64,000 bases of DNA from Anaerolineaceae bacterium (GTDB taxonomy: Bacteria; Chloroflexota; Anaerolineae; Anaerolineales; Anaerolineaceae), in NCBI GenBank assembly GCA_029975475.1, contig JARKPB010000003.1:258067-322066 (forward strand), written 5' to 3'. A program made the position numbers and the translations under genes. Below the pieces are notes generated by a model. It had not been told where the DNA came from. It did no database searches and worked only from the letters and a program-made list of their open reading frames with translations. Of this stretch, positions 1,376 to 45,705 are shown in pieces; position 1 is the stretch's first letter, and each line of letters opens with the position of its first letter.

Positions 1376-1382
1376 CATCAGC

Positions 1383-3488: not shown

Positions 3489-3528
3489 CAAGGGCAGAAC
3501 ATTCACAAAAAACCGCCTAGGAGGAGTT

Positions 3529-13657: not shown

Positions 13658-13696
13658 ATTTGCATCGATATCCCCGCTGATAGAAGGATGCCGTCA

Positions 13697-16600
13697 ATGA
13701 ATCAATTCTCCCCCAAAAAACTGAGAGACTTCATCCAAAAAGTACGCTTCGTTCGTATTCTTAGTCGGAGTACCCTGCTGCTGGCGGTGCTGCTGGCGGC
13801 GGTTGGTCAGCCGCTTCGCCAGGCTGAAGCCGCACCGCTGCAGGCAGCGGTCGCTTCCGTCAGCCTGCCGGGCGGCACGGCAGAAATCTTAATGGGCGAG
13901 AATTTTACTTTCGACGCTGTGTTTCAAAACCCCAGCACGGAAGTAGGGTACGGCCCTTTCATTGACCTCATCTTTCCTGTTACTGGAAAAGACGGCGCTG
14001 GCGCTGAAATTGACGACGGCATCGACTTCCTTTCCGCCACCTACCTGGGGGTTAACCTGACCCGCGTTGTTCAAACTTTCCCGGATGACGGGATTGGCTG
14101 CGTCCCGCACCCATACGCGCGCGACGCCAGCAATTTGCCCGTCCAGGTCTGCGGAACACCGGGCGACAAGCTGGTTACCCTTCAGCTGCCGTTTGGTTCG
14201 CTGGTGCCGTCCCAACCCGATCTGGTCGCGAGCATCACGGCCAAACTTTCCCCGCTGGCGGACGTCGGAGCGGGCAACGAGTTGCTCATCCGCGCCCGCG
14301 GGGGCTACCAGTTTGGCAATGACGAACTGGATAACCCCGCCAGCGACCCGAGCATCCTCGGCAGCTGGGACGAATGGTATATCCGGCCGACATTATTGCG
14401 GTTAACCAAATCCTACATCGGCCCCGAAGATGAAACCGCCACCGGACCAAACTACCCGCGCCAATACCGGATCACGGTTGACATCGCCGACACACAGACC
14501 CTCACCGATCTTGACCTGACTGACGTACTGCCCATCAACATGCAGTACGTCAGAGTGGTCAGCACAACCATCCGCGGCACGCCAACCGCGACCAGCGCCG
14601 TTTCCACCCCGAGCACGTCTTCACCGGGCGGCACGCTCACCCGCCGTTTTGCCTCCGTTACCGGAACGACCGCGGCCAACGACGCCGAAATGGTCTTCGA
14701 ATTTTATATCCCCCTGCGTGACCTGAATAACGCTTACGTGCTGCCGCCCGCGAACGGGGATGACCGCCCTTCGGAAGACGACGCCAAAGCCAGCGGAACC
14801 TGGGACCCCACCGATCCGCGCGATGATCCCGTCCCGCCTGATCCTTTCCCGATCGTGGTGACGGACGCGCGCCCGGTTGATCACACCCTGTGGGATAAAT
14901 CCATCGCCATCCAAAAAACGGTCGCCACCGTTCCATACGGCGGCCAACCCCAGCCGGGCAAGGTCCTGGAATACACGCTCAACATCCAGATTTCTGATTA
15001 CTTCGCCTTTGATAACCTGATCATTACCGATATTATTTCTGACGGACAGCTGTGGGATGCCACGTTTGCTCCTTCCCTGTCTGTCACCGGGAACAATTTT
15101 AACCTGAGCGAGGCTGATTTCAACCGCGCGAACTACAGCGATCCGATCGCCCCCAGCGGGGATGGAACCACCCAGGTCACCTTTAATCTCTCGGCGGAAT
15201 TGCTCTCCCGCGGGGAGCCGACCGGCCGGCTGGTCGGCGGTTGTATTCCAATGTCAGATACCCGTCAGACCGGCGGCACGGGCGGCGGGGACCCGAACTG
15301 CGCCGCCTACAACACAGGCAACACAGTCGCAACGGTAAAATTCCGCACTGTGATCCAAAACGAATTCCTCGCCGATACCAGTCCGAATTCCCAGTCCGTC
15401 GATCAGGGAGATGTCCTCGATAACCGCGTGACCATTAGCGGGCGGGTGTTGAATGTCAGCAATCTGAGCCCCTACGTTCCAAACGCGTTTGAGGATGACG
15501 ACAGCAGCGCGGGTGTCCAGATCCGGCGCGGCGCCCTGGTCAAGACCATTTACGCCAAGAACGGCGTGGCTTGCGACCCGCAGCCCTGCACCAATGTTCA
15601 GGCTGCCCCGGGTGAAACCATTACCTACCGCTTTACCTACGCCCTGCCCACCAGCGACGTGGAGGACATGCGCTTTACCGATTTTCTGCCCCTGCCCATC
15701 TTCCGCTCGGCTGAAGTCACCACCTTTGACGATGTGGTCAGTTCCGCGCCGCCAGCGGCCGGCCACGCTAAGTTTGGCCCGACCGACACCTTCCGGGCAA
15801 AATCCTCAATCGTCCCGACCATTACCACCAGCGTTCCTCAGAACAGCATCACTTTCAATTACGGTGATTATGACAACAGCATTCCGCCCACTCCAGAAAC
15901 GGTGGATATCCTTTTCACGGTTACCACGCGCAATGATCCTTTCGCGGACGGGCTCTTCCTGACCAATCAGGTACAGGCTTTTGAAGGCTCAACCAACGCT
16001 TCCAGCCAGACCGCCAACAGCATCGTCCAGATCCAGATCGCCGAGCCGAATGTCATGATCCGTAAAGGTGTGGTCTGGAGCGATAACGCGTCAGCCGTGT
16101 TCAGCCCGAACCCGCCTTACCCGCCCGCGGTAAGTTTCAGCGGCAGCGGCTGTTCGCGCTTTAGCGGGACGATCAACTCGCTCCTGCTGCAAAATTCCAG
16201 CGTATTTATCAGCGATATCTCCGGGCTGGACGGCGGCGACCGGGCCACCTATGCGATCATCATTGAGAATCAGGGGTCAAGCTTCCGCGGCGCGTACGAT
16301 GTTACCGTGAAAGACCTCCTCCCGCCGAATACCACCTATGTGCCCGGCAGCCTGTGCGTTACTGACGGCACTGGCACAGCCTTACCCTACACCGCGCTGA
16401 GCGGCGGCCTGACCGGTGATGGTATCCAGATTGATGATCCCAGCCTTGACCAGGGCGGCCTGAGCGCCTATTCGGAGACCAGCGGTAAGAACATAGCGGT
16501 CATCACCTTCGACGTCACCCTTAACAGCAGTTTTCCGGCTGACTCCAGCGCCACAAACACCGCCACACTGACGCGCTTCGCTTCCACGGAAGGAGGCCCG

Positions 16601-19600
16601 AACTTTATCCCGGGCGGAAAGAGCGATCAGGCTGATCTCAGCACCATTCCGCCCCAGGTCCGCAAAGACCTGGACAGCACCAGCCTGGAGAATGCCAGCA
16701 ATACCCGCGAGCAGGCTGCCATTGGCGAACTGGCGACTTACTCCGTTCAAATCACGGTCCCGGAAGGCACGACCCTGAATACGCGCCTGCGCGATATCCT
16801 GCCGGCCGGGATGGTCTTTGTCAGGTGTCTGAGTATCAGCGCGCCCGGCGGGGTGAGCACCAACCTGCCCGGTGGGTTTGCTTCTGCCTGCCCGGTCGTG
16901 CCCCAGGATCCGGCGGTCAACCCGACCGTCAGCGCGGACGGGCAGACCGTTGAATTCTCCCTGGGTGATCTGACCAACACCAACAACACGCCGGAACCAG
17001 AAGTCCTCACCCTGACCTACCAGGCGGTTGTGAGGAATATCAGTTCCAACAATGAAGGCACCACGCTGACCAATAACGCCACCCTTTTCTGGGATTCTGG
17101 CAGCGCTTCGGACGCGGGCGACACGCTCACGATCGTAGAACCGCTGGTCATCATCACGAAAAGCGCCTCGCCCACATCCGGAGACGGCGGCGATACGATT
17201 ACCTTCACGGTTGAACTCACCGCTGTCAGCGGGGCGAACCGCACCGACGCCTACAACGTGGTCTTTGCGGATTTGATCCCGGCGGGAATGAGTTACGTCA
17301 ACAACTCGCTGGCTTTCGTCCCCGGCGGCGGACGCATTGCCCCGACAACCATCAACGGCGCAAGCGGGCCGAGTATCTCCGCTGCCTGGGACAAACTGGC
17401 TCCCGGGCAAACCTCACGCCTGACCTTTGACGCTACTCTGACCTACGCGGTTACGCCAACTCAGGCGATCACCAACACCGGGCTGGTGACCTACACCAGC
17501 CTGCCCGGGTCGCAGCCGGGTCCGCTCAGTATTTACGGCAGCCACGTCTGCGAACGCACCGGCGACAACACGCAGCTGTGCGGCGGATCGGCCAATGATT
17601 ATTACGCCGCTGACCCGGAAACGGTTTCGGTTTTCAATGCTCAGATAAATAAAACGCTCAAAGAGACATCCGAAGCCCATACTGGCGGCGAAAACGTGGT
17701 GATTGGCGAGGTGGCAACCTACGAAGTTAAGATTACCGTTCCTGAAGGCTCGCTCCCTGCCGCTCAGTTAAGGGATATCCTGCCCTCCGGCATGGCTTTT
17801 GTCAAATGCGTCGGGCTGGATGTTCCGGCTGGCGTGACCACCGACCTGCCTGGCGGTTTTCCGGCGGCCTGCCCGCTTATCCCAGAAAATCCGGCCGTGA
17901 ACCCCACAGTCAGCGCGGATGCGCGCACCATCACCTTCAACTTTGGGAACATCAGCAACAGCAACAATTCCGCCGAGGCAGAAGTCATCACGCTGACCTA
18001 TCAGGCGATTGTGACCAACATCAGCACCAACGATGCCGGCGATACCCTGACCAATACCGCGCGCTTTAGCTGGACAGGCGGCAGCGTCAGCACCAGCGGC
18101 CCGACTCTAACCATTCTGGAACCGCGCATTGACGTCCAGAAAGCCGTAGCGGTTGGCGGGGCGGGCGGTGCGGCGGGCGACCCGGTTACCTACACGGTCA
18201 CCCTGCGCCACCCCACCCCGATGATCCCCGGTGATATTGACGCTTTTGACCTGGAGCTGAATGATCCGCTGCCGGTCTCGCCGATTACCGGCAACTCGCT
18301 GATTGAATTCAGCGGTTCGCCCACCATCACGGTGGTTGATTCTGGCGGTTCGGTGGACAGCAGCTACTTCGAAATGGTGGGCAGCAACGCGACCGGCTGG
18401 ACCCTGCGGACCAGGGCGGGCAGCGAAATTGACTTCCCTTACAGCCCGATTCGCACCATCACCATCTCCGTAACCGGCACCCTTTCCTACCAGGCACCGC
18501 TCGGCAGCGCGGTCTCCAATACCGCCACCGGCCGCTGGACCAGCATCAACGGCAGCCTGCCGGATCTCTCGGTGTATACCAGCGATGACACCGAACGCAA
18601 TGGATCACAAAGCCCGGCGCACAACGATTATATGGACACCGGCAGCGTAAGCTTCAACGTGCTCAACCCCGGAGTCAGCAAGGTCATCACCGACACCAAC
18701 CAGAGTTTTACCAGCGGCAGCAACGTCGCCATTGGCGAAATCATCACATACCGCGTCACCTACGCTGTGCCGCAGGGCACGGCTTACGAGTTCCGCTCGG
18801 TGGACACGCTGGATAACGGCCTGGCTTTTGTCGACTGCGTCAGCGTCAGCAACCCGGACGGCCGCCTGACCGCGTCCAACGGCTTCAGCTGCGCCAACGC
18901 GACCTACAACGACGCCACCCGCACCATGACCGTGGATTTCGGCAACCTGACCAACAACGATACCGACCCGCTCACCACCGAGCAGATCGTGCTGGATTAC
19001 ACTGTTGTGGTGCTTAACAACAGCGTTACCAACCGCGGCAGCGCGTTCAACAACGCGGTCACCCTCTCCTGGCGCGAAGCGCCGGTCACCGGCACCCTGC
19101 GCTCGGTCAGCGGCAGCGCCCCGGATGTAACCGTGGTGGAGCCGACCATCACCATCTCAAAAACCCGCACCCCCACAACCGGGGACGCCGGCAACACCAT
19201 CACTTTTACAATCGATCTGACCGCATCGAACACCGCCAATACCACTGACGCTTACAACGTGGTCTTCAGCGATGCCATCCCCACCGGCATGACTTATGTG
19301 AATGGTTCGCTGGCTTTTGTGTCCGGCAGCGGACGCATTGCGCCGACTACCATAAACGGCGCTACCGGTCCCAACATCTCCGCCAGCTGGGACGTGCTAT
19401 CCCCCGGCCAGACCTCGCGGCTGACCTTCCAGGTCACCCTGGACAGCAACGTCTTCCCCACCCAGTCCATCACCAATACCGGCGTGGTCACCTACACCAG
19501 CCTGCCCGGCACGGTCGCCGGACCCCTGACTACCCACAGCACAGATGGCTGCGAACGCACGGGTGACAACACCCAGCCCTGCGGCGGGGCGAACAACGAT

Positions 19601-22600
19601 TTGCGCGCCACCAGCGCCACATCGGTTTCAGTCCCGAATGTCGCCATCAGCAAAGCCCTGTATGCCACCTCCGGAGCGCACACCACCGGCAACAATGTGA
19701 CCATCGGCGAAATCGTCACCTATGATCTGATCGTGACCCTGCCAGAAGGGGTAACACCCAACACCACACCTTCACTGCGGGTGACAGACCGTGTTCCAGC
19801 CGGGATGCAGTACGTCAACGGCAGCGGTCAGGTGATCCTGGGCACCTTTAACGGCACCGTTCCCGCCCCGACGATCTCACTGGTTACTTCTACGGGTAAC
19901 GGCGACGACGTCCGCTTCGATTTTGGACAGATCACCACCACGGACGATAACGTCACCACCAACAACAGCTTCACCATCCGCCTTCAGGTGCTTGTGCTGG
20001 ATGTGCCGGGCAATGTCGGTGTTGCCACCGGTCAGACCTCCCTGGTCAATGACGCTCAGGCTCGCTCCGGTACTGCCACGACCATTACCAGCAACACGAT
20101 CACCACGCCGGTGATCGAACCGCGCCTGACCATGACCAAATCGGTCAACCCGACCGCTGCCGCGGTCAACGACGTGGTCACCTACACCCTGGTGGTCCAG
20201 AACAACGGCCTGATGACCGCTTACGATGTTCTGATCACAGACCCGCTGTCTGAAACAGTATTCCAGGACATCACCTGCGGGACCATCCCCGCCGGCTTTA
20301 CCTGCTCCACTTCCTCTTCTGGCGGTATCACCACCATCCGACTGGAAAGCGACGGCAGTCCCAGCGGCGGCCAGATTGATGTCGGCGCGCCAAACGCCAA
20401 AACCTTCACCTTTACCGCCAAAGTCAAGGCGATCAGCAACGGCCAGGTGGTGCCCAACACCGCCACGATCGAAAATGAAACCACCTTCCCCGGCGTGGTC
20501 AGCGGGGAGCGCGACGAACCCAACGTCACCGCGAGCGCCAACCTGACCGGCATCGCCCCGGATGTGCGCATCCTGAAGACAGACGGTAAAACCAGTGTGA
20601 TCCCCGGTGAAACCATCGTCTACACCCTGACGGTGGATAACATCGGCACGCGGGTTACCGACAACGTGCGGGTTACCGAAACTGTGCCGACCCACACCAC
20701 CTTCCTGCCGGCTCACCCGGATAACGCCGGCTGGAGCTGCGCCGCAAACACCGCCGGCTCCACCTGCACCTACGACATCCCCGGCACGCTGGCGCTCAAC
20801 ACTCCGGTGGTGCTCAAATTTGCCGTTCAGGTGGACGCGGTTGTGCCAGCGGGCACGCTGCAGGTGGTCAACACAGCCAGCGCAGCGGATAACGGCAGCC
20901 ACGGGGCAGACATCAACCCCGCCAACAATTCCAGCACCGATACAGACACCCTGACCGCCGCTCCCAACGTCAGCGCCGTCAAGAGCGTCAGCCTGTATAA
21001 CGACGTCAACAGCGACGGGAATGCCAACCCCGGGGACACGCTGGAATACACCATCGTGCTCACCAATAACGGTAATCAGGATGCTTCCACAGTATCCTTC
21101 AGCGACAGCCTGGACACCAATCACGACCTGATCGTCGGCTCGGTAACCACCACGCGCGGCACGGTAACCAGCGGCAATACCGCGGGTGATACAGCAGTGG
21201 GGGTTAATGTTGGAACCTTACCCGGCGGTGGAGGCAGCGCGACGATTAAATTCCGCGTAATCGTTGACAGCCCTCTGGCGGCTGGTGTAACCGAAGCACG
21301 CAACCAGGGCTCGGCGAGCGGCGGGAATATCCCCAACACGCCGACCAACCGGGTGGATACTCCGCTCATCGCGGCGCCGGATCTCCAGATCAGCAAGGTG
21401 GATGATGTCGCCGGAGTAATCCCCGGGGATTCAGCCAACAACCAGATCACGTACACCATTACCTACGCCAACACCGGCAATCAGAACGCGACCGGCGTGG
21501 TCATCACCGAAACCGTCCCGGCCAACACCACTTACATCGCCAGCGGTTCTTCCGCCTGGTCGTGCGCCGACGGCGCTCCGGCCGGCACCACCTGCACCCT
21601 GACCATTGGCAACCTGACGGCTGGCGCGGCCCCGGCGAGCGCGGTGTTCAAAGTGCGCGTTAACAACACGGTTCCGGCAGGCGTCACGCAAATTAAGAAT
21701 ACCGTCACCATCGCGGATGACGGCGCCAACGGCGTTGACCCGACGCCCGAAAACAACACGGATGACGAAGATACGCCCGTGAGCGCTGAACCGGATGTCT
21801 ATGTGACCAAGGCGGATAACCCTGATCCGGTTACCCCGGGCGCCACCCTGGCGTACACGCTGACGGTCGGGAACCGCGGCAACCAGGGCGCGACCGGTGT
21901 GGAAGTCACCGAAACCGTCCCGGACAATACCACCTACGTGGCCAGCGGGTCTTCCGCCTGGTCGTGCGCCGACGGCGCTCCGGCCGGCACCACCTGTACC
22001 CTGACGATCGCCTCTCTGCCGGCTGGCAGCGGACAGTCGCTGGTCTTCCGGGTGGCTGTGAATAACCCGGTTCCTGCCGGAACAACCGGGCTGTCAAACT
22101 CGGTCAGCGTCAGGGATGATGGCTCAAATGGAACCGACCCGAACACAGACAACAACCGCGACAGCGAGCCAACCGATATCAACGCGGCCCCGGATTTAAC
22201 CCTTCAGAAGGGAGACGATGATATCACCGCCACACCGGACGGTACAATCACCTACACCATAAATTACAGCAACGTGGGCGATCAAGATGCGACCGGTGTG
22301 ACCATCACTGAGACCATTCCGGCCAATACCAACACGGTCGGCCTGACCAATAGCGGCTGGACCTGCAGCGGTACTTCAGCCGGGTCAACCTGTACCATTT
22401 CTATTGGCGACCTGGCAGGCAATGGCGGGTCTGGCACGGTCAATTTCACCGTGCGCGTCAACACGCCGCTGCCCGCGGGTGTGACTCAGATTGAGAATAC
22501 CGCCTCAATTGACGATGATCATCAAAACGGAATTGACCCGACCCCGAGCAACAACAGCGACAGCGAGGACACCCCTGTCAGTGCTGCCCCGGATATCGCC

Positions 22601-25600
22601 GCGGAAAAGAGCGTATCCCCAACCGGGGCGGTAAAACCGCTTGACATTCTCACGTACACCATCGTGATCACCAACAACGGCGATCAGGATGCTGCAGACG
22701 TCGTGTTTGAAGACTCGCCTGATCCCAACACGTTCCTGCGCGTCTTCTCCGTGTCCACCACCCAGGGCACCGTCATCACCGGAAACAACCCCGGCGACAG
22801 CAGCGTCCGCGTCAACCTGGGCACGATCAGCGGCGGCGGTGGAAGCGCAACAATCACCTTCCAGGCAATCGTTAAAGACCCGGCGGCTGCCGGTGTGGAT
22901 CAAGTGATAAACCAGGGCAAGGTTTCTGGCAGCAACTTCCCGGATGAAGATACCAACCAGGTGAATAACGACCTCACCGCTCAGCCTGACCTGGAGATCA
23001 CCAAGTCAGATGGCGATGTTACCACCGCTACCGGGCAGGTCATCACGTACACGCTGACCTACCGCAACACCGGCAACCAGGATGCCACCGGGGTGGTGAT
23101 CACCGAAACGATCCCGGAAAATACCCATACCGATGGGCTGACCAACACAGGCTGGACCTGCGGCGGTACTTCAGCCGGGTCCACCTGCACCTACACTATC
23201 GGAAACCTGGCCAGCGGCGGAGGCGGCGCGGTCACCTTTGTTGTGCGCGTCAATGATACCCTGCCTGCTGGCATCGATAAGATCGAGAACAGCGCCTCCA
23301 TCGCCGATGACGGCGCCAACGGGGATGACCCAACACCCGATAACAACAAAGATGATGAGGACACACCGGTGGCCGCCCTGCCCGATCTCTATGTGACCAA
23401 AGGCGATGACCCCGACCCGGTTACCCCGGGCAGCACAATCACCTATGACATCACCGTGGGCAACCAGGGCGACCAGGACGCGGCCGGTGTGGTCATCACC
23501 GAAACCGTCCCGGACAATACCACCTACGTGGCCAGCGGTTCTTCCGCCTGGAGCTGCGCCGACGGCGCCGCGGCCGGCACTACCTGCACCCTGACCATTG
23601 CCTCCCTGCCGGCCGGCGAAAGCCGCGATCTGACTTTTATCGTCCGGGTCGCCTCTCCCTTCCCGGCGGGTGTCACCCAGGTACAGAACACGATCAGCGC
23701 AGCGGATGACGGAGAGAACGGCACCGACCCCAATCCCGACAACAACCGCGACAGCGAGCTGACCGACGTGACCGCCGCGCCTGATTTGCGCATCACCAAG
23801 ACGGACGGGGTCAGTCAGGTGGCGGCCGGTTCGCGCCTGACCTACACCATCACCCTGGACAACATCGGGGACAAAGTCGCCACCAACGTGGTGGTCACCG
23901 ATACCTACCCGGAACACACCACCTACGTCTCCAGCAGCCCGGAAGCCGCCAGCCACGACCCCGCCACCCGCACCCTGACCTGGGATCCGATTGACTCAGT
24001 CAGCCCGTCGGACGCCCCGCGCACCATCACGGTGGTGGTGGATGTCAACCAGCCGCTTGACCCGGCGGTCAGCAGCCTGACCAACACCGTGCGCGTGGAA
24101 GATGACGGCATGAACGGCAGCGACCCGGCGGACAACAACACCGCCACGGATGTGGACGCGGTTGGCGGAGGCGGCAAGATCCTGACCGGCACCGATATGT
24201 CTCACACCGGGGGCAGCGATGTCGCCATCGGCGAGATTGTGACCTACCAGATCAACCTGCTGGTCCGCCCCGGATCGCTGGAAGACCTGAAGCTGGTCGA
24301 CACGCTCGACCGCGGCCTGGCGTTGGTGGATTGCCAGGTCAGCGGCGATGCCAACCTGACCTCATCCAGCGGCGATTTTGCTGACTTTTGCAGCCTGCCG
24401 CCGGACGGCGTAATCTTTAAGGTTGGTCCCGAACCGGCTGGCAGCAGCGCTGATGTGGATCAAGGCCGCCAAATGATCCTGGACTTTGGCACGCTGACCA
24501 ATTCCGGCCTGACCGAAGGCAACCTGACCATCACCTACCGCGCGGTGGTGCTGAACTCCGCCGGAAATCGAAATGGAGCGGTGCTGAATAACAACGCGGT
24601 CTGGTCATGGAAAGGCGGGACAGTACCGCTCCCGCCGGTCAGCGTTACGGTTGTCGAGCCAACCCTGTCCATCGGGAAAGAGGCTTCTACCACGGTAGCC
24701 ACGCCGGGTTCGGTGATCACCTTCCGCCTGACCATTTCCAGCGCTCCAGGGAACAACCTGGAAGCCTACGACCTGCTGATGACCGACCTGCTGCCGGACG
24801 GCATGACCTATGTCGAAAATACTCTGAATTATGTGTCCGGCCAGATGCCTGACTACCTGGAATACCGTCTTCCCAACGAACTTCGCGCGGTCTGGAGCAG
24901 CTTTGACCCGCAGGGCGCGCCGACCGTGCTCGAGTTCAGCGTGAAAATCAACGGAAATCTGGGAGGCCGCAGAGATCTGCGCAACACAGCCAATCTGGAA
25001 TGGACCAGCCTGCCGCAGAACGTTTCGACTTCACGGACGACATTCAACCGGCTTGGGACCGAGCGGTCTTACGACCCGGGTTCAGAGGTTAACATCTATG
25101 GCGCCAGCGCCACAGTCAGCCTGAGCGTTCCATCGCGGCTGCCGGACACCGGTTTCGCTCCCGGTAAGGTCACCGACCTGCCGGAGCAGCCCGCCGATAA
25201 GGCTTACCAGCAAACCGGCGACCTGAGCCTGGAAATTCCAGCCCTCAAGGTCACTGTCCCCATCGTCGGCGTACCGCTGGTTAATGGAAAATGGGATTTG
25301 ACCTGGTTGAACCGCCAGGCCGGGTATCTGGAAGGAACAGCCTTCCCCACCTGGAACGGCAACACGGGTTTGACCGCGCATATCTTCACCAGCGACGGCG
25401 CTTCCGGTCCATTCCGCTATCTGGATAAACTGCGCTTTGGCGACCAGGTCCTCATCCACGCCTATGGAAAGAAGTACATCTACTCGGTCCGTCAGGTCCA
25501 GCGCGTCCAGCCCGGCGACCTCTCACCGCTGAAACACGAAGAGAAGCCCTGGCTGACTCTGCTGACCTGTGAAGATTACGATGCCGACAGCGGCTCCTTC

Positions 25601-25651
25601 CGCAGCCGTCTGGCGGTCCGCGCCGTGCTGATCCGCACGGAAGACGAATAA
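13697..25651 (+). CDS. Giant secreted repeat protein (~3984 aa): DUF11-like and isopeptide-pilin-like modules, ending in LPDTG plus a sortase-fold domain
   Basis: One uninterrupted frame. N-terminal signal/anchor region ILSRSTLLLAVLLAAVGQPLRQAEA. Repeated modules of the form xIGExxTYxxxxxVPEG and A-P-D-L-x-I-x-K...TYTxxxxNxGNQDA (conserved repeat domain, DUF11 style). C-terminal LPDTG and TLxTC-type sortase motifs. GAAGGA RBS lies before the ATG at 13697; the ATG at 13688 is an alternative start. Confidence 0.9.
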   Translation: MNQFSPKKLRDFIQKVRFVRILSRSTLLLAVLLAAVGQPLRQAEAAPLQAAVASVSLPGGTAEILMGENFTFDAVFQNPSTEVGYGPFIDLIFPVTGKDGAGAEIDDGIDFLSATYLGVNLTRVVQTFPDDGIGCVPHPYARDASNLPVQVCGTPGDKLVTLQLPFGSLVPSQPDLVASITAKLSPLADVGAGNELLIRARGGYQFGNDELDNPASDPSILGSWDEWYIRPTLLRLTKSYIGPEDETATGPNYPRQYRITVDIADTQTLTDLDLTDVLPINMQYVRVVSTTIRGTPTATSAVSTPSTSSPGGTLTRRFASVTGTTAANDAEMVFEFYIPLRDLNNAYVLPPANGDDRPSEDDAKASGTWDPTDPRDDPVPPDPFPIVVTDARPVDHTLWDKSIAIQKTVATVPYGGQPQPGKVLEYTLNIQISDYFAFDNLIITDIISDGQLWDATFAPSLSVTGNNFNLSEADFNRANYSDPIAPSGDGTTQVTFNLSAELLSRGEPTGRLVGGCIPMSDTRQTGGTGGGDPNCAAYNTGNTVATVKFRTVIQNEFLADTSPNSQSVDQGDVLDNRVTISGRVLNVSNLSPYVPNAFEDDDSSAGVQIRRGALVKTIYAKNGVACDPQPCTNVQAAPGETITYRFTYALPTSDVEDMRFTDFLPLPIFRSAEVTTFDDVVSSAPPAAGHAKFGPTDTFRAKSSIVPTITTSVPQNSITFNYGDYDNSIPPTPETVDILFTVTTRNDPFADGLFLTNQVQAFEGSTNASSQTANSIVQIQIAEPNVMIRKGVVWSDNASAVFSPNPPYPPAVSFSGSGCSRFSGTINSLLLQNSSVFISDISGLDGGDRATYAIIIENQGSSFRGAYDVTVKDLLPPNTTYVPGSLCVTDGTGTALPYTALSGGLTGDGIQIDDPSLDQGGLSAYSETSGKNIAVITFDVTLNSSFPADSSATNTATLTRFASTEGGPNFIPGGKSDQADLSTIPPQVRKDLDSTSLENASNTREQAAIGELATYSVQITVPEGTTLNTRLRDILPAGMVFVRCLSISAPGGVSTNLPGGFASACPVVPQDPAVNPTVSADGQTVEFSLGDLTNTNNTPEPEVLTLTYQAVVRNISSNNEGTTLTNNATLFWDSGSASDAGDTLTIVEPLVIITKSASPTSGDGGDTITFTVELTAVSGANRTDAYNVVFADLIPAGMSYVNNSLAFVPGGGRIAPTTINGASGPSISAAWDKLAPGQTSRLTFDATLTYAVTPTQAITNTGLVTYTSLPGSQPGPLSIYGSHVCERTGDNTQLCGGSANDYYAADPETVSVFNAQINKTLKETSEAHTGGENVVIGEVATYEVKITVPEGSLPAAQLRDILPSGMAFVKCVGLDVPAGVTTDLPGGFPAACPLIPENPAVNPTVSADARTITFNFGNISNSNNSAEAEVITLTYQAIVTNISTNDAGDTLTNTARFSWTGGSVSTSGPTLTILEPRIDVQKAVAVGGAGGAAGDPVTYTVTLRHPTPMIPGDIDAFDLELNDPLPVSPITGNSLIEFSGSPTITVVDSGGSVDSSYFEMVGSNATGWTLRTRAGSEIDFPYSPIRTITISVTGTLSYQAPLGSAVSNTATGRWTSINGSLPDLSVYTSDDTERNGSQSPAHNDYMDTGSVSFNVLNPGVSKVITDTNQSFTSGSNVAIGEIITYRVTYAVPQGTAYEFRSVDTLDNGLAFVDCVSVSNPDGRLTASNGFSCANATYNDATRTMTVDFGNLTNNDTDPLTTEQIVLDYTVVVLNNSVTNRGSAFNNAVTLSWREAPVTGTLRSVSGSAPDVTVVEPTITISKTRTPTTGDAGNTITFTIDLTASNTANTTDAYNVVFSDAIPTGMTYVNGSLAFVSGSGRIAPTTINGATGPNISASWDVLSPGQTSRLTFQVTLDSNVFPTQSITNTGVVTYTSLPGTVAGPLTTHSTDGCERTGDNTQPCGGANNDLRATSATSVSVPNVAISKALYATSGAHTTGNNVTIGEIVTYDLIVTLPEGVTPNTTPSLRVTDRVPAGMQYVNGSGQVILGTFNGTVPAPTISLVTSTGNGDDVRFDFGQITTTDDNVTTNNSFTIRLQVLVLDVPGNVGVATGQTSLVNDAQARSGTATTITSNTITTPVIEPRLTMTKSVNPTAAAVNDVVTYTLVVQNNGLMTAYDVLITDPLSETVFQDITCGTIPAGFTCSTSSSGGITTIRLESDGSPSGGQIDVGAPNAKTFTFTAKVKAISNGQVVPNTATIENETTFPGVVSGERDEPNVTASANLTGIAPDVRILKTDGKTSVIPGETIVYTLTVDNIGTRVTDNVRVTETVPTHTTFLPAHPDNAGWSCAANTAGSTCTYDIPGTLALNTPVVLKFAVQVDAVVPAGTLQVVNTASAADNGSHGADINPANNSSTDTDTLTAAPNVSAVKSVSLYNDVNSDGNANPGDTLEYTIVLTNNGNQDASTVSFSDSLDTNHDLIVGSVTTTRGTVTSGNTAGDTAVGVNVGTLPGGGGSATIKFRVIVDSPLAAGVTEARNQGSASGGNIPNTPTNRVDTPLIAAPDLQISKVDDVAGVIPGDSANNQITYTITYANTGNQNATGVVITETVPANTTYIASGSSAWSCADGAPAGTTCTLTIGNLTAGAAPASAVFKVRVNNTVPAGVTQIKNTVTIADDGANGVDPTPENNTDDEDTPVSAEPDVYVTKADNPDPVTPGATLAYTLTVGNRGNQGATGVEVTETVPDNTTYVASGSSAWSCADGAPAGTTCTLTIASLPAGSGQSLVFRVAVNNPVPAGTTGLSNSVSVRDDGSNGTDPNTDNNRDSEPTDINAAPDLTLQKGDDDITATPDGTITYTINYSNVGDQDATGVTITETIPANTNTVGLTNSGWTCSGTSAGSTCTISIGDLAGNGGSGTVNFTVRVNTPLPAGVTQIENTASIDDDHQNGIDPTPSNNSDSEDTPVSAAPDIAAEKSVSPTGAVKPLDILTYTIVITNNGDQDAADVVFEDSPDPNTFLRVFSVSTTQGTVITGNNPGDSSVRVNLGTISGGGGSATITFQAIVKDPAAAGVDQVINQGKVSGSNFPDEDTNQVNNDLTAQPDLEITKSDGDVTTATGQVITYTLTYRNTGNQDATGVVITETIPENTHTDGLTNTGWTCGGTSAGSTCTYTIGNLASGGGGAVTFVVRVNDTLPAGIDKIENSASIADDGANGDDPTPDNNKDDEDTPVAALPDLYVTKGDDPDPVTPGSTITYDITVGNQGDQDAAGVVITETVPDNTTYVASGSSAWSCADGAAAGTTCTLTIASLPAGESRDLTFIVRVASPFPAGVTQVQNTISAADDGENGTDPNPDNNRDSELTDVTAAPDLRITKTDGVSQVAAGSRLTYTITLDNIGDKVATNVVVTDTYPEHTTYVSSSPEAASHDPATRTLTWDPIDSVSPSDAPRTITVVVDVNQPLDPAVSSLTNTVRVEDDGMNGSDPADNNTATDVDAVGGGGKILTGTDMSHTGGSDVAIGEIVTYQINLLVRPGSLEDLKLVDTLDRGLALVDCQVSGDANLTSSSGDFADFCSLPPDGVIFKVGPEPAGSSADVDQGRQMILDFGTLTNSGLTEGNLTITYRAVVLNSAGNRNGAVLNNNAVWSWKGGTVPLPPVSVTVVEPTLSIGKEASTTVATPGSVITFRLTISSAPGNNLEAYDLLMTDLLPDGMTYVENTLNYVSGQMPDYLEYRLPNELRAVWSSFDPQGAPTVLEFSVKINGNLGGRRDLRNTANLEWTSLPQNVSTSRTTFNRLGTERSYDPGSEVNIYGASATVSLSVPSRLPDTGFAPGKVTDLPEQPADKAYQQTGDLSLEIPALKVTVPIVGVPLVNGKWDLTWLNRQAGYLEGTAFPTWNGNTGLTAHIFTSDGASGPFRYLDKLRFGDQVLIHAYGKKYIYSVRQVQRVQPGDLSPLKHEEKPWLTLLTCEDYDADSGSFRSRLAVRAVLIRTEDE
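16650..20110 (+). repeat. Coding repeats: alternating ~160-aa A modules (IGE..TY...PEG) and ~170-aa B/C modules
   Basis: A modules start near 16650, 17635, 18660 and 19630, with a fifth near 24170. B modules at 17130-17640 and 19135-19630 are clearly paralogous, e.g. TSGDGGDTITFTVELTAVSGANRTDAYNVVFADLIPAGMSYVNNSLAFVPGGGRIAPTTINGASGP versus TTGDAGNTITFTIDLTASNTANTTDAYNVVFSDAIPTGMTYVNGSLAFVSGSGRIAPTTINGATGP. Both carry a CERTGDNTQxCGG loop. Confidence 0.8.
20110..24165 (+). repeat. Ten tandem ~395-415-nt (~132-138 aa) DUF11-type coding repeats
   Basis: Units begin near 20110, 20550, 20955, 21371, 21785, 22184, 22583, 22979, 23375 and 23774, each with an (A/I)xP(D/N/R)(L/V/I)xxxK boundary. The DNA stretches at ~21911-22030 and ~23501-23620 are about 90% identical by eye. 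Confidence 0.85.
25139..25651 (+). other. LPDTG motif (25139-25153) followed by the sortase-fold catalytic domain of the giant ORF
   Basis: LPDTGFAPGKVTDLPEQPADKAYQQTGDLSLEIPALKVTVPIVGVP...GNTGLTAHIF...PWLTLLTCEDYD...RLAVRAVLIRTEDE-stop. Candidate His, TLxTC Cys and Arg occur in sortase order. No hydrophobic helix or basic tail follows LPDTG. Confidence 0.7.
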
Positions 25652-25668
25652 CCTGCGAATAATGATGA

Positions 25669-25706
25669 AAACGAAGTCCCCGGGCTATCCGGGGACTTCG
25701 TTTCTC
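25669..25706. terminator. Bidirectional intrinsic terminator between the giant ORF and lysS
   Basis: 15-bp stem AAACGAAGTCCCCGG / CCGGGGACTTCGTTT with a 5-nt loop. T-rich flanks on both strands. Confidence 0.75.
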
Positions 25707-25715
25707 TTGATCAAC

Positions 25716-27245
25716 CTACTCTTCGCTGTCACGTTCGCGCAGCGGCGGGAAGAGGATCACCTCGCGGATGCTGCGGTGGCCGGTCAAGAGCATGACCAGC
25801 CGGTCAATCCCCATGCCAAAACCCCCGTTTGGCGGCATGCCGTAAGACATGGCTCGCAGGTAATCTTCATCCATCGGGTGGCGTTCCTCATCATCGGCTT
25901 GATAATCCCTGCCCATCTCCAGAAAACGCGCTTCCTGATCGAGGGGATCATTTAATTCGGTAAAAGCGTTGCAAAGTTCCATCCCGCCGATAAAGCCTTC
26001 GAAGCGCTCGACCGTCGTCGGGTCGCCCGGTTTGCTCTTTGCCAGCGGCGAGATATCGCGCGGATAGTCATACAGAAAGGTCGGCTGAATAAAAGTTGGT
26101 TCCAGGTAATCACCCAGGAGCGTGTCAATCAACTTACCGCGAGCGGTGCCGGGCTTAAACTTCATGCCTTTGGATTCCATCACCGCAGCCAGGCTGGCAT
26201 CGTCCGGGTAGAGGTTGATGTCAATTCCGGTGGCTTCAATCAGTCCCTCGCGTAAATTGACCCGCCGCCATGGAGGAGTGAGGTCAATCTCATGGCCGTT
26301 GAATGTAAACTGGCGCGACCCAAGCACCCGGTCTGCCACGTACACCAGCATCTCTTCGGTCAGGTCCATCACGGTCAGATAATTGGCGTGCGCCATGTAA
26401 AATTCCAGCTGGGTAAACTCAGGATTATGCTTGTAAGACACGCCCTCATTGCGGAAATCGCGCCCGATTTCATAGACGCGTTCCAGTCCGCCTACCAGCA
26501 GCCGTTTGAGGTAAAGCTCAAAAGAGATGCGCAGATAAAGATCCTGGTGAAGCTGGTTGTGGTGGGTGATAAAGGGTCGGGCCGCCGCGCCGCCGTAAAT
26601 TGGTTGAAGAATGGGGGTCTCGACTTCAAGAAATCCGCGCGCATCAAGAAATGCTCGCAGCGCGGAAATCACCGCCGCCCGGGTGCGAAAAATCTGGCGG
26701 ACATGCGGGTTTACCGCCAGATCCGCGTAGCGCTGGCGATAACGGCTTTCCGGGTCGCTGAGGGTGGCGTGGCGAACCACCTGACCGTCCACCACCTCGT
26801 CTTTCGCGGCCGGTAAGGGGGTGATGGCTTTGGCGAGCATCCGAAAAGCGGCCACCTGCAGGGTGATTTCGCCCGTGCGGGTGCGGAACATCGTTCCGCG
26901 AGCCTCGATAAAATCGCCCAAATCAAAATCTTCGGCGAATCGCTTCATTTCAGATTCGCCCAGCTCGTTGATGCGGAAAAATAACTGCAGCCTGCCAGCC
27001 CCGTCCTCGATATGGGCAAATGCGATCTTGCCCATCAAGCGGGTCGCGCGCAGCCGCCCGCCGACGATCACCTCGACCAGCTGGGTGCTGCCTGAGCGTT
27101 CCGCTTCTTCAAACAGGCGCACGGCTTCCGCGCTGCTGTGCTTGACGTCTGAGCGGGTGGGATAAGGTTCAATCCCCGCGGCGCGCATGCGCGAGATTTT
27201 CTCCAGGCGAATCTTCTCCAGTTCATTCCATTCCATACGATCCAT
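25716..27245 (-). CDS. lysS: Lysine--tRNA ligase (class II)
   Basis: N-terminal OB anticodon-binding domain ([31 protein letters not shown]). Class II motifs FRNEG and [16 protein letters not shown]. Confidence 0.95.
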
Positions 27246-27287
27246 CCTTCAACAGAATTGAGGCGCTTATCCGCACAACTATACCAT

Positions 27288-27324
27288 AAAAAAAGCCCCG
27301 TCCGATCTGACTGACGGGCGGGGC
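27288..27324 (-). terminator. Intrinsic terminator after greA (possibly partial, ahead of lysS)
   Basis: Minus-strand CCCGTC...GACGGGG hairpin followed by a T7 run (the plus-strand A-run at 27288-27294). Confidence 0.55.
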
Positions 27325-27341
27325 GCTCTGGCCAATAACGC

Positions 27342-27809
27342 TCATTCCACCTTGCGGATAACCACGGTGAACGACCCGTCCGGGGCTTCAACAACGACCT
27401 TATCTCCGGCCTTTCGGCCAAGCAATGCCTTTCCCAGCGGGGATTCATTGGAAATCCGGCCCTCAACCGGGTTCGCTTCAGCCGCCCCGACAATCAGGTA
27501 CTGCTCGTCGGTTTTGGACCCTTCTTCTCGAATGGTCACTTTCGAACCCACCACCACCGCGTCTTTGCTCACTTCCGCTTCATCAATCACGCGGGCGGTC
27601 GCCAGTAAAATATCCAGCTCTTTGATGCGTCCTTCCACAAACGCCTGTTCGTTTTTGGCGGCCTCATATTCGGCGTTATCAATCAGTTCACCGCCGTCCA
27701 TGGCTTCATGCAGCCGCTGGGCGATTTCTTCCCGCTTTACCGTACGTAAAAAATCGAGCTCTTCTTGAAGTTTATTGTAGCCTTCACGAGTCAAGAAAGT
27801 CGTAGGCAT
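27342..27809 (-). CDS. greA: Transcription elongation factor GreA
   Basis: MPTTFLTREGYNKLQEELDFLRTVKREEIAQRLHEAMDGGELIDNAEYEAAKNEQAFVEGRIKEL is the coiled-coil N-terminal domain. A C-terminal FKBP-like domain follows. 155 aa. Confidence 0.95.
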   Translation of the reverse strand: MPTTFLTREGYNKLQEELDFLRTVKREEIAQRLHEAMDGGELIDNAEYEAAKNEQAFVEGRIKELDILLATARVIDEAEVSKDAVVVGSKVTIREEGSKTDEQYLIVGAAEANPVEGRISNESPLGKALLGRKAGDKVVVEAPDGSFTVVIRKVE

Positions 27810-27917
27810 ACCCTCTATCCTTTTATCCAGACGATTGTTTTACCGTAAATTCAGCCCCTGTCGTATGCTTTTACCGGGGTTAAAAGCAAAAGAACCACCC
27901 CAACAGGAGCGATTACC

Positions 27918-27945
27918 TAAAAAAATACCAGCGCATAGCGCGTGG
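27918..27945 (-). terminator. Promoter-proximal hairpin plus U7 in the greA leader (attenuator-like)
   Basis: The minus-strand RNA would read CCACGCGC-UAU-GCGCUGG-UAUUUUUUUA. It starts about 3 nt after the predicted TSS and lies about 108 nt upstream of the greA ATG. Confidence 0.45.
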
Positions 27946-27954
27946 AGTTTCAAA

Positions 27955-27983
27955 ATAATAACATATTTTTAACCCGAATGCAA
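27955..27983 (-). promoter_or_regulatory. Sigma70-like promoter for greA
   Basis: On the minus strand: TTGCAT (27983-27978), 17-nt spacer, TATTAT (27960-27955). Confidence 0.45.
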
Positions 27984-28048
27984 GTTCTAGTCAATTGAAG
28001 CGCTGAGGAGCGGTTTTCCGGGTATAATCAGCCCGTTTGCGGGCTGCC

Positions 28049-28651
28049 ATGCAGATCTTCACCACGCTGTTAATTTCGATTGGACTGGCAATGGACGCCT
28101 TCGCGGTTTCCATCGGCGTTGGCACGACTGACCGTTCCTCTGACCGCGGCGCCGTCTTCCGCCTGGCTTTTCATTTTGGCCTCTTTCAGGGATTGATGAC
28201 CTTCCTCGGCTGGCTGGCCGGCAGCACCGTCGCCAGCCTGATCGCGGGCATTGACCACTGGGTCGCCATGGCGCTGCTGGCCTGGGTCGGCGTGCGGATG
28301 ATCCTGCAGGGCTTGAGCCAGGAAGAGCAGCCAGGCTGTCCTGATCCATCCCGCGGCGGGACCCTGATGATGCTGTGCATCGCAACCAGCCTGGACGCCA
28401 TGGCTGTGGGCCTCGGCCTGGCAATGATCAATGTAGATATACTCAGCGCTTCGCTTTCCATTGGTTTCATCACCCTGGGGCTCTCGCTGCTCGGGCTGCT
28501 GCTGGGCTCCCGGCTGGGCAGGCGGTTTGGCAGGCGGATGGAAGTGGTCGGCGGGATTATCCTGAACCTGATTGGCCTGCGCATTCTGCTCACCCACCTG
28601 TTCCCCGCGCTGGAACCCGCCCTCTTGACATTTATCGCCTTTCAGGCATAA
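28049..28651 (+). CDS. mntP: Manganese efflux pump MntP (DUF204 x2)
   Basis: MQIFTTLLISIGLAMDAFAVSIG, with a second repeat CIATSLDAMAVGLG. Six TM segments, about 200 aa. Confidence 0.85.
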   Translation: MQIFTTLLISIGLAMDAFAVSIGVGTTDRSSDRGAVFRLAFHFGLFQGLMTFLGWLAGSTVASLIAGIDHWVAMALLAWVGVRMILQGLSQEEQPGCPDPSRGGTLMMLCIATSLDAMAVGLGLAMINVDILSASLSIGFITLGLSLLGLLLGSRLGRRFGRRMEVVGGIILNLIGLRILLTHLFPALEPALLTFIAFQA

Positions 28652-28669
28652 TTGAGCCAATATTAAACA

Positions 28670-28935
28670 GCCCTGACAGAGGAAAGTAAGCTGAAGGAAG
28701 CCGCCAGGGATGCGGACGCGCAGACTGAAACGTCCGCTCGGTGAAAACCAGCTGAAGTTCCCTCTCGAGCCGCTCAGGTGAACATGATTCGATCAGTAGT
28801 CTGAGCCGCCCTGCCAGCGTTATCCGGGCAGCCAATCGCCGCAAGGCCGTTGGACAGAGCGGGCTGCGCCGGGCGCAGCCAAAAAGGGTGGTACCGCGGG
28901 AATGCTTCCCGTCCCTTACAGGGACGGGTTCTTCA
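28670..28935 (+). promoter_or_regulatory. T-box leader (Phe) with terminator/antiterminator upstream of pheST
   Basis: Conserved T-box AGGGTGGTACCGCGG at 28885-28899. Terminator stem CCCGTCCC / GGGACGGG at 28908-28928, followed by TTCTTCATTT. The T-box 3' side CGGGA can pair with TCCCG of the terminator 5' arm, forming the antiterminator. Candidate UUC specifier at 28758-28760 within GAAGUUCCC. Confidence 0.75.
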
Positions 28936-28958
28936 TTTAACTAATTATTGAGGTGAGC

Positions 28959-29999
28959 ATGTCAGAACACGAAATCTTTGCCCGACTCAAAGAAATCCAG
29001 CGCCAGGGGCTGGAGGCCCTGCAAAAGGTCCAGGACGAAGCCAGCCTGCAGACCTGGCGCACCGCCCATCTGGGCCGCTCGTCAGCGGTTATGCAGATCT
29101 TCTCCGGCCTGGGCAGCCTGGATAAGGAGCTGCGCCCGCAGGTTGGCCAGCAGGCGAACCTGGTCAAACAGGCGCTGGAAAGCGCCTACGCGCAGCGTGA
29201 AGAGCAAATCAAAGCCGCCAGCCTGCAGCGCGCCCTGACCAGCGAAAAGCTGGATGTCAGCCTTCCCGGCCGCCGCCGGCCGCTGGGGCGGCTGCATCCC
29301 GCCACCCAGGTGCTCAACGAGATCTGCCAGGTCTTCGTGGAAATGGGCTTCCAGATTTACCGGTCTCCCGAAGTCGAGACCGATGTGTTGAACTTTGAAC
29401 TGCTCAACATCCCCGCCCACCACCCTGCCCGCGATATGTGGGACACGTTTCACACCACCAGCCCGGGCATTTTGCTGCGCACGCACACATCGCCGGGTCA
29501 AATCCGCCTGATGCGCGAAGCCTGCCCGGAACCCATCCGCGCCATCCTGCCCGGGATGTGCTACCGCTACGAACAGACAGATGCCAGCCATGAAAGCCAG
29601 TTCAACCAGATTGAGCTGCTGGCGGTCGGCAAAGGCATCACCTTTGGCGATCTGAAAGGGACTTTAGACCAGTTCGCGGTGCGCATGTTCGGCGAAGGCG
29701 TACGCACCCGCCTGCGCCCGTCCTACTTTCCATTCACCGAACCGAGCGCTGAGCTGGATGTGCAGTGCTTTTTATGCGCTGGCAAAGGTTGCACCGTCTG
29801 CAAAGGCACCGGCTGGCTGGAACTGGGCGGCTGCGGGATGGTTCACCCGGTCGTCCTGCAAAACGGCGGTTACGATCCTGAAATTTATTCCGGGTTCGCT
29901 GCCGGTCTCGGCCCGGAACGCGTGGCCATGATGCGCTACCGCATTGAAGACATCCGTTCATTCTGGGCGAATGACCTTCGCTTCCTGGAACAATTTTAG
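28959..29999 (+). CDS. pheS: Phenylalanine--tRNA ligase alpha subunit
   Basis: Class II core: HPARDMWDTF, MCYRYEQTDASHESQFNQIE and GFAAGLGPERVAMM. GAGGTG RBS before the ATG at 28959. Confidence 0.95.
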   Translation: MSEHEIFARLKEIQRQGLEALQKVQDEASLQTWRTAHLGRSSAVMQIFSGLGSLDKELRPQVGQQANLVKQALESAYAQREEQIKAASLQRALTSEKLDVSLPGRRRPLGRLHPATQVLNEICQVFVEMGFQIYRSPEVETDVLNFELLNIPAHHPARDMWDTFHTTSPGILLRTHTSPGQIRLMREACPEPIRAILPGMCYRYEQTDASHESQFNQIELLAVGKGITFGDLKGTLDQFAVRMFGEGVRTRLRPSYFPFTEPSAELDVQCFLCAGKGCTVCKGTGWLELGGCGMVHPVVLQNGGYDPEIYSGFAAGLGPERVAMMRYRIEDIRSFWANDLRFLEQF

Positions 30000-30008
30000 G
30001 AGATCGGC

Positions 30009-36121: not shown

Positions 36122-36191
36122 AGCGCGTTTCCATCCTGACCCTTGGTCTAGGGCTGATTATACATTGAATTGAAAGACCCATTTTCTGCCT

Positions 36192-36220
36192 TTGCGGCAG
36201 ACAGCAGGATTGTCTATAAT
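36192..36220 (+). promoter_or_regulatory. Sigma70-like promoter for the HerA-like ATPase gene
   Basis: TTGCGG (36192-36197), 17-nt spacer, TATAAT (36215-36220). The -35 element overlaps the inverted repeat TCTGCC-N5-GGCAGA (36186-36202). Confidence 0.45.
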
Positions 36221-36267
36221 AGAGGAAGTCTGTATTGTTTGAAACTTCCAACCAGGATGGTGAAACC

Positions 36268-45619: not shown

Positions 45620-45654
45620 CCAAAAATCCTCGCGCAACCTGTCATTACTATACC

Positions 45655-45697
45655 TTAAAAATCAGGCCGGACGCCCTCCGCGGTCATCCGGCCTGAT
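45655..45697 (-). terminator. Hairpin plus T-run after actP
   Basis: Minus-strand stem ATCAGGCCGGA / TCCGGCCTGAT with a 15-nt loop, followed by TTTT. Confidence 0.5.
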
Positions 45698-45705
45698 CCC
45701 GGTGG

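Follow-up and report, generated by a model that had tools for sequence, protein, structure and literature searches.

The DNA considered here (the window) is a stretch of 64,000 nucleotides from an Anaerolineaceae bacterium of the phylum Chloroflexota (contig JARKPB010000003.1, positions 258,067 to 322,066), and our subject is one giant gene on its forward strand. The open reading frame (ORF) at 13688-25651 (+) runs without interruption for 3987 amino acids and encodes a secreted protein that resembles a fibrillar adhesin and carries an LPxTG motif and a sortase domain at its C-terminus. Its second methionine codon, nt 13697, is the start in the public gene call and gives 3984 amino acids, which is the length quoted in a first-pass annotation made from the sequence alone. 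The parts of the gene, in window coordinates and with the evidence in brackets, are as follows.

13688..25651, + strand: whole gene, giant secreted fibrillar-adhesin-like protein with a C-terminal LPxTG motif and sortase domain (ORF, Pfam/NCBIfam domain content)
13688..13831, + strand: predicted Sec signal peptide with a basic n-region, an h-region TLLLAVLLAAVG and a putative cleavage site between AEA and AP (read from the sequence)
13832..15787, + strand: conserved N-terminal head, approximately residues 49-700, no Pfam family, presumed functional or adhesive end (identity to 56 representatives of the family)
15788..25126, + strand: stalk of about 3100 amino acids, immunoglobulin (Ig)-like domains of isopeptide type (Pfam/NCBIfam matches, AlphaFold2 model of the last domain)
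25139..25153, + strand: LPDTG sortase recognition motif, residues 3818-3822, predicted scissile bond Thr3821-Gly3822 (sequence, family conservation)
25154..25228, + strand: conserved linker of 25 residues, FAPGKVTDLPEQPADKAYQQTGDLS, the positional counterpart of the lid-bearing N-terminal extension of class C sortases (conservation, AlphaFold2, phmmer)
25229..25630, + strand: sortase catalytic domain, residues 3848-3981 (PF04203, TIGR01076, AlphaFold2, Foldseek)
25379..25381, + strand: catalytic His3898 in LTAHIF (aligned with the class C histidine, invariant in 200/200 family sequences)
25568..25570, + strand: catalytic Cys3961 in TLLTC (aligned with TLLTC of 6ixz and 24rr, invariant in 200/200)
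25607..25609, + strand: catalytic Arg3974, 13 residues after the cysteine and the first arginine of RLAVRAV (invariant in 200/200)
25649..25651, + strand: stop codon, 6 residues past the end of the Pfam domain (sequence)

The C-terminal domain is a member of the sortase family. It matches PF04203 with 70.6 bits (cut-off 26.6) over residues 3848-3981, corresponding to profile positions 1-124 of 125, and TIGR01076 with 49.2 bits (cut-off 39.35). His3898, Cys3961 within a TLxTC sequence and Arg3974 occupy the canonical sortase positions, and the Cys-to-Arg spacing of 13 is that of Cys184 and Arg197 in Staphylococcus aureus SrtA. In the AlphaFold2 (AF2) model of the last 219 residues, which has a predicted local distance difference test score (pLDDT) of 88.8 and a predicted template modelling score of 0.80, the strands are arranged in the pattern of a beta-barrel. 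When this model is compared with the PDB by Foldseek, the top 50 matches are all sortases, of classes E, D, C and A (E ~1e-10 to 1e-8, template modelling score for the target 0.52-0.79). The first-pass annotation had read a complete sortase fold after the motif, and both the match to practically the whole PF04203 profile and the exclusively sortase-like model bear this out. It had also picked the right residues: the histidine in LTAHIF, the cysteine in TLLTC and the first arginine of RLAVRAV align with those of class C sortases, and none of them varies in the family. Judged from sequence and model, the catalytic apparatus looks intact and the enzyme is predicted to be active.

Regarding the class of this sortase, the nearest solved structures by sequence are class C pilus sortases (E 3e-11, 28-30% identity). 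None of the class-specific NCBIfam models comes near its cut-off: the class C model (NF033745) gives 46.3-51.6 against 160, and the models of classes D, E, F and GN score below it and fall equally short (cut-offs 140-166). By these profile scores the fused domain is best described as a separate sortase clade without a curated model, outside every defined class. The enzyme has neither an N-terminal signal-anchor nor a C-terminal transmembrane helix, and to our knowledge all characterised sortases carry a membrane anchor. A Kyte-Doolittle scan of the whole giant protein places the strongest hydrophobicity and the sole transmembrane-grade stretch in the N-terminal signal region (maximum 1.94, residues 21-39) and finds no hydrophobic segment or basic tail after LPDTG, in agreement with the earlier reading that no membrane-spanning segment separates motif and enzyme and that the signal region is the sole anchor-like stretch.

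The same arrangement is widespread in Anaerolineae and occurs in hundreds of related species. A search with the last 219 residues of the giant protein returned 367 clusters that are annotated 'sortase' or 'LPXTG-site transpeptidase family protein'; the organism names attached to them are Anaerolineales or Thermanaerothrix. Sequences of the 149 best representatives (library clustered at 50% identity) were examined, and 116 of these carry the sortase core. A scan of one genome per GTDB species gave at least 592 loci, the best 80 of which were examined. All but two of these 80 lie in assemblies of Anaerolineae/Chloroflexota, among them that of the isolate Levilinea saccharolytica KIBI-1. The two exceptions, a 3.8-kb contig in a metagenome-assembled genome (MAG) of Acidithiobacillus ferrivorans (L008) and a 21.8-kb contig in a Phycisphaerae MAG (L070), are probably due to mis-binning rather than horizontal transfer because of the sizes of the contigs and the 54-56% identity to Anaerolineae proteins. 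At 80/80 loci the sortase lies at the end of a long ORF that runs without interruption; the lengths go from 352 to over 3500 codons, and many are cut only by the 10-kb limit of the flanks. In all 116 representatives, which are 582-6026 amino acids long, the sortase core forms the very C-terminus, only 0-12 residues following it, and a motif of the form xPxTG[FYWL] precedes it.

Upstream of this constant end the proteins differ. Most passengers are DUF11-type giants, others contain FG-GAP or other non-DUF11 domains, and one complete protein of 287 amino acids (P0095) has only some 100 residues between its signal peptide and LPDTGFAPG, which is followed by the sortase. The module is portable, since its passengers vary from about 100 residues in P0095 to about 6000 in the largest giants. 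The start of P0095 lies 9 nt past a gene for a 525-aa secreted repeat protein (L090 4444-6893). As it has no LPxTG, this neighbour is no obvious substrate in trans. Another short sequence, P0057 (194 amino acids), was considered as a natural stand-alone or split form of the sortase; it turned out to be a frameshift artefact, the ORFs of its contig being broken in many places. Three genomes have two adhesin-LPxTG-sortase genes in tandem (L010 2303-20282; L020 2-13802; L035 2-11311), and some MAGs have extra copies on separate contigs (DYEC01 with L014 and L080, CAVQSU01 with L050 and L051). Paralogue expansion seems to be common.

The gene neighbourhoods point to a module that needs no partner encoded nearby. 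Neither the window nor the roughly 1.2 Mb of flanks at the 80 loci yielded a second sortase or a canonical substrate with LPxTG, transmembrane helix and basic tail, and no pilin genes are adjacent. When ORFs within 4 kb were clustered, no conserved accessory gene emerged; the widest neighbour family is present at 13/80 loci, and families of this kind reflect local synteny. The module appears autonomous, because it has no transmembrane segment, is always C-terminal and has no second sortase, canonical substrate or partner gene nearby.

LPDTG is the sole match to [LIVM]P.[TSA]G in the giant protein. A single LPxTG proves nothing by itself, because 0.21 occurrences are expected by chance in 3987 residues of this composition. 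What lies above chance is the conservation of the motif at a fixed distance from the active site. Here it ends exactly 25 residues before the start of the Pfam sortase domain, as the first-pass annotation had estimated. Elsewhere in the family the motif stands 28-33 residues ahead of the core in 116/116 representatives and 140-145 residues from the catalytic cysteine in 105/106 cases, and xPxTG[FY] precedes the motif AGYLEGTAFP by 57-60 residues at 79/80 loci. The idea that LPxTG might be kept at a set distance before the domain therefore holds for every relative examined. In 200 pooled family sequences the positions of the motif are L in 90%, P in 100%, T in 99% and G in 100%, while the x position is free (A 29%, E 16%, D 15%, also K, S, R, G, N, Q and others). 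The catalytic His, Cys and Arg are each present in 100% of the same sequences. Thus, the motif is as constrained as the active site, and constrained in the pattern that sortases read, which argues for a true substrate motif.

The protein does not end in a canonical cell wall sorting signal. It has the LPxTG pentapeptide and lacks the hydrophobic helix and basic tail at the extreme C-terminus, and neither PF00746 nor TIGR01167 matches the giant protein, again as had been stated at first pass. Instead, the motif lies about 170 residues from the C-terminus and is followed by a polar linker and an enzyme of 140 amino acids. The linker is conserved as well: after the motif F is found in 98%, A in 92% and P in 96% of the 200 sequences, followed by T3829 (94%) and Y3840 (95%). 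When it is modelled together with the sortase domain, its pLDDT is 89-94. The constant spacing, the conservation and the confident modelling fit with a linker that belongs to the folded domain and is not a flexible tether.

The position of this segment has a counterpart in class C sortases. In an ungapped phmmer alignment GFAPG falls opposite the GLDPF lid of Enterococcus faecalis Ebp SrtC (24rr), and LPDTG ends just before it. When crystal structures are compared, the class C lid overlaps with LPAT as it is bound in SrtA, proline falling upon proline, and it has been termed a pseudo-substrate (Cozzi et al., PMC3493515). A segment about 20-27 residues upstream of strand beta-1 can therefore reach the groove in a substrate-like orientation, because the class C lid does so. 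By analogy, the motif may dock in the groove of its own sortase.

The rest of the protein gives an idea of what is delivered by this C-terminus. The N-terminal region of about 650 residues has no match in Pfam even at E<=1 and shares 35-50% identity with the N-terminal ends of 56 representatives; three lysines (K241, K410 and K619) are invariant and stand at predicted domain starts. From this conservation the region looks like an undescribed adhesin head domain. It is followed by a stalk with DUF11 in 12 stretches (468.8 bits), TIGR01451 in 14 stretches and TIGR04226 in 7 stretches (269 bits), in addition to a GramPos_pilinBB match at residues 1682-1797. Domains of the TIGR04226/GramPos_pilinBB type are found mainly up to about residue 2150, and repeats of DUF11, DUF7507, DUF7619 and DUF7927 thereafter. 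The last DUF11-like domain gives a confident AF2 model, the final strand of which (residues 3805-3813) ends close to the motif. Crystallography has recently revealed an isopeptide bond within the DUF11 domain, which now bears the name CLIPPER (PMC12617251). With a signal peptide and a tandem stalk of isopeptide-forming families, the protein belongs to the isopeptide-stabilised fibrillar adhesins, the bonds themselves being predicted. The profile matches also confirm the earlier impression that the modules upstream of the motif are pilin-like and of isopeptide type. The same head and DUF11 stalk occur in other lineages, in proteins whose C-terminus is a short tail of IPTL-CTERM type with hydrophobic and basic residues, which suggests that the sortase module occupies the slot of an anchor. 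The head is also seen in P0130, P0168 and P0257, other-lineage proteins in which IPTL-CTERM-like hydrophobic/basic tails replace the sortase.

Based on these data we propose that the protein carries, in its last 170 residues, an anchoring module that is complete in itself: the sortase would cut its own LPxTG and pass the adhesin to an amine of the cell envelope. We consider it probable that the fused enzyme processes this motif, be it in cis or between copies, and most likely cleavage would take place in cis and once. For the complete proposal, with transfer to the envelope, we see an even chance. The sequence of events might be the following. The protein would be exported by the Sec pathway and its signal peptide removed. 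The sortase would then fold with LPxTG-FAP at or in its own substrate groove, in the place of the class C lid, as position and conservation suggest. Cys3961 would attack the Thr3821-Gly3822 bond, and the mature adhesin of about 3770 residues (49-3821) would be held as a thioester on a separated sortase fragment of 166 residues starting with GFAPG. An amine of the envelope, most likely a peptidoglycan stem peptide or lipid II, would resolve the thioester. The adhesin would in the end be attached covalently by its C-terminus and the spent sortase fragment freed, each enzyme molecule acting once. MurJ is encoded in the window, and therefore the organism makes peptidoglycan. If the scheme is right, the module would replace the two-component layout in which a substrate with LPxTG, transmembrane helix and basic tail is served by a sortase anchored separately in the membrane; for this replacement the chances are equally balanced.

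Several observations weigh against this proposal. Only four residues separate the last strand of the final Ig-like domain from LPDTG, which could hinder binding in the groove. The register of the alignment is approximate, since the residues of the lid are matched with A-P-G, which lies six positions past L-P-D of the motif. The LPDTGFAPGK block has a pLDDT of 70 in a control model that comprises the last Ig-like domain and the motif but not the sortase, and 94 with the domain; the score is no proof of docking, because 70 is still obtained in the control. After cleavage in cis the leaving Gly N-terminus would stay tethered and the reaction could be reversed. Finally, it is not obvious how a sortase that lacks a membrane anchor would come into contact with lipid II.

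Among the alternatives, a reaction in trans between copies survives best, and we still regard it as unlikely. The sortase domain of one molecule would cut the LPxTG of a second and join it to a lysine of a third, in the manner of class C pilus sortases, giving covalent fibres or a cross-linked surface layer or sheath made of giant subunits. Such a reading suits the class C, i.e. pilus-polymerising, nature of the nearest solved structures, the passenger of pilin-type isopeptide domains (TIGR04226 in 7 copies, GramPos_pilinBB), the tandem or multiple paralogues in several genomes and the filamentous growth of Anaerolineae. However, no YPK or [FYW]PK[NDG] pilin motif is found anywhere in the giant protein, nor is there a candidate lysine for the nucleophile. 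The sole invariant head lysines, K241, K410 and K619, are placed at domain starts as expected for intramolecular isopeptides, and the mature N-termini are not conserved among relatives. In addition, the rigid, conserved and short linker suggests that the motif is held on its own enzyme, and the class C profile scores of 46-52 stay far from the cut-off of 160.

A second alternative is that self-cleavage serves release or maturation. The domain would then be a single-use protease with its thioester resolved by water, for example as an aid in secretion or folding. Sortase acyl-enzymes are hydrolysed slowly when no nucleophile is present, which lends this idea some plausibility, as does the lack of a membrane anchor to hold the intermediate near lipid II. 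Engineered sortase-LPXTG fusions indeed cleave themselves and free their cargo (PMC2901362). Yet a giant isopeptide stalk makes no sense unless it is fastened to the cell at one end, and after removal of the signal peptide no other attachment is left. Homologous adhesins of other lineages bear anchoring tails at the same position, and the strict conservation of the transpeptidase Arg and of FAP exceeds the needs of a simple protease. We think that release is quite unlikely.

It is also conceivable that LPxTG-FAP is an autoinhibitory pseudo-substrate lid that is never cleaved, and that the tethered sortase acts at the distal end of the adhesin on other or external targets. The class C lid, a pseudo-substrate that escapes cleavage, does have the same position as this segment (PMC3493515). 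Known lids, however, are of the type DP[FWY] and not a perfect LPxTG, and the conservation described above affects the positions that sortases read (L, P, T and G) and leaves free the one that they ignore. No trans substrates with sorting signals were found in the 1.2 Mb of flanks, and an enzyme made 1:1 with a carrier of about 3800 residues would be wasteful for a catalyst. All this makes the lid reading decidedly improbable. The first-pass annotation had offered three mechanisms; its cis self-processing or self-attachment is the one favoured here, the lid analogy has gained some positional support, and head-to-tail polymerisation received no specific support.

A separate housekeeping sortase could process the motif, with the fused domain discarded like the tail of a sorting signal or otherwise employed. 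There is some room for such an enzyme, as the sortase search covered the window and the flanks of the 80 loci. On the other hand, the precursor has no transmembrane segment or basic tail to keep it at the membrane, the catalytic triad of the fused domain is absolutely conserved, and no stand-alone sortase is present near any of the 80 loci. We regard this explanation as very unlikely indeed.

That assembly or gene calling merged two genes has practically no probability left: giant repeat genes are often misassembled and some database entries are fragments, such as P0057 in its frameshift-ridden contig, but a contig of an independent short-read assembly (Logan SRR23724704, seen in 7 samples) is 100% identical over window positions 23509-30227, junction included, and the fusion is uninterrupted at 80/80 genome loci and in 116 full-length representatives, which stem from different studies. 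The identical independent assembly excludes a stop or frameshift at the junction, including positions 25153-25200, where the first-pass annotation had suggested looking for one, and together with the recurrence of the fusion in independent genomes it refutes the artefact and leaves the single-gene reading in place.

The self-anchoring module that we propose can be compared with several known systems. Sortases are pictured as two-component systems of a membrane-bound enzyme with many substrates in trans and have been studied almost wholly in Bacillota and Actinomycetota. The canonical pathway, exemplified by S. aureus SrtA and protein A, shares with the present family the L-P-x-T-G logic, the catalytic residues, and the signal peptide with an isopeptide Ig-like stalk; the difference is that here substrate and enzyme are one polypeptide, their ratio is 1:1 and the enzyme has no membrane tether. 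The best sequence matches among solved structures are class C sortases (Streptococcus pneumoniae SrtC-1 2W1J, group B Streptococcus SrtC1/SrtC2, Clostridium perfringens SrtC 6IXZ and E. faecalis Ebp SrtC 24RR), which have in common with our domain the beta-barrel fold, the His/Cys/Arg triad with TLxTC and a conserved segment about 20-27 residues before beta-1. In contrast to them, the DP[FWY] lid is replaced here by GFAPG right after a perfect LPxTG, there is no N- or C-terminal transmembrane anchor, the domain is fused to the C-terminus of its presumed substrate, and the host belongs to Chloroflexota rather than Bacillota or Actinomycetota.

In engineered self-cleaving tags the enzyme is reportedly N-terminal to the motif (Srt-LPXTG-cargo). 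Such tags (BISOP, PMC2901362) resemble the present proteins in having sortase and LPXTG in one polypeptide; the enzyme cleaves its own fusion and so frees or ligates the cargo. They are artificial, whereas the natural family has the order cargo-LPxTG-sortase with a short, conserved and structured linker and is widespread. The Hint domain of Hedgehog is a C-terminal autoprocessing domain that acts a single time: it attacks the peptide bond where it begins, holds its passenger as a (thio)ester, hands it on to an outside nucleophile, with cholesterol as acceptor, and is then discarded. The analogy is functional only: the proposed logic is alike, and fold and chemistry are unrelated. The same stalk is found in DUF11/CLIPPER adhesins with LPXTG, OmpA-like, Por_secre_tail or IPTL-CTERM-type anchors (PMC12617251), and some of these other-anchor adhesins share the 650-aa head, as noted for P0130, P0168 and P0257. 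In DUF11 adhesins elsewhere a short tag is handled by a separate enzyme or machine; here motif and enzyme together stand in the position of the anchor.

Anaerolineae are abundant, mostly uncultured filamentous bacteria of sludge, sediments and hot springs. Full-text literature searches, with most subscription journals outside their coverage, turned up no account of sortases from Anaerolineae or of a sortase naturally fused to its substrate, and yielded only engineered fusions and general adhesin surveys. The caution at first pass that similar fusions may already be annotated was justified in one part, since hundreds of them are labelled 'sortase' in databases, and not in the other, as the fusion itself was found in no paper. 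The parts are familiar; unfamiliar are their joining in one covalent chain, the lost membrane anchor and the single-turnover chemistry in cis that this layout implies. Recent adhesin surveys restrict the search for LPxTG to the 50 C-terminal residues (PMC12617251, PMC9210967), and such pipelines miss this anchor because the motif lies about 170 residues from the C-terminus. There is thus an annotation blind spot, in which adhesins of about 4000 residues are labelled simply 'sortase'. If our proposal is true, Anaerolineae show their largest surface proteins by a one-polypeptide, single-use sortase chemistry, and the module is an example of a sortase that works without a membrane tether. It would also set the puzzling lid of pilus sortases, a pseudo-substrate, in a natural context and supply protein engineers with a compact cargo-LPxTG-sortase cassette for self-ligation that nature has already optimised.

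A broader reading, which we offer only tentatively, is that of an 'autosortase', a portable domain that would need no membrane, turn over once and ligate its passenger via a stored thioester to any suitable amine. It would then resemble autoprocessing domains of the Hedgehog/intein type, with a sortase fold as its basis. The acceptors could then be the cell wall, a sheath, a neighbouring filament or even a foreign surface. As a corollary, the class C lid and the cis-substrate described here might be evolutionary relatives, linking autoinhibition to an ancestral or derived cis reaction.

In the rest of the window, the genes beside the giant gene are of housekeeping type (dnaE, pfk, lysS, greA, pheST). 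The order giant gene-lysS-greA is the same in Anaerolineae bacterium Ch5 (L078), where the identity of LysS is 74%. Over window positions 14001-24000, within the giant gene, GC skew is negative throughout (-0.09 to -0.16) and AT skew positive as compared to the flanks, which probably reflects the Thr/Asn/Asp/Val-rich composition of the repeats.

The window has several further features. At 2325-4629 (+) the gene of an HtrA-like protease (Trypsin_2 and PDZ) is followed, with overlapping stop and start codons, by that of a bacterial archaeo-eukaryotic release-factor family 10 (baeRF) protein. At 33887-38730 a HerA/DUF87-like ATPase gene (36235-38730, +) is divergent from an ORF of 744 amino acids (33887-36121, -), for which neither our analysis nor the public gene call gives a Pfam match; the two may form an uncharacterised two-gene system. 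A T-box leader at 28664-28919 (+) (Rfam RF00230, 104.8 bits, gathering score 93) lies directly 5' of pheS (28953-29999) and pheT. Finally, at 41903-47655 (-) a sensor of 1244 amino acids with PHP, Cache, PAS, CBS and DUF294 nucleotidyltransferase domains adjoins a sodium:solute symporter.

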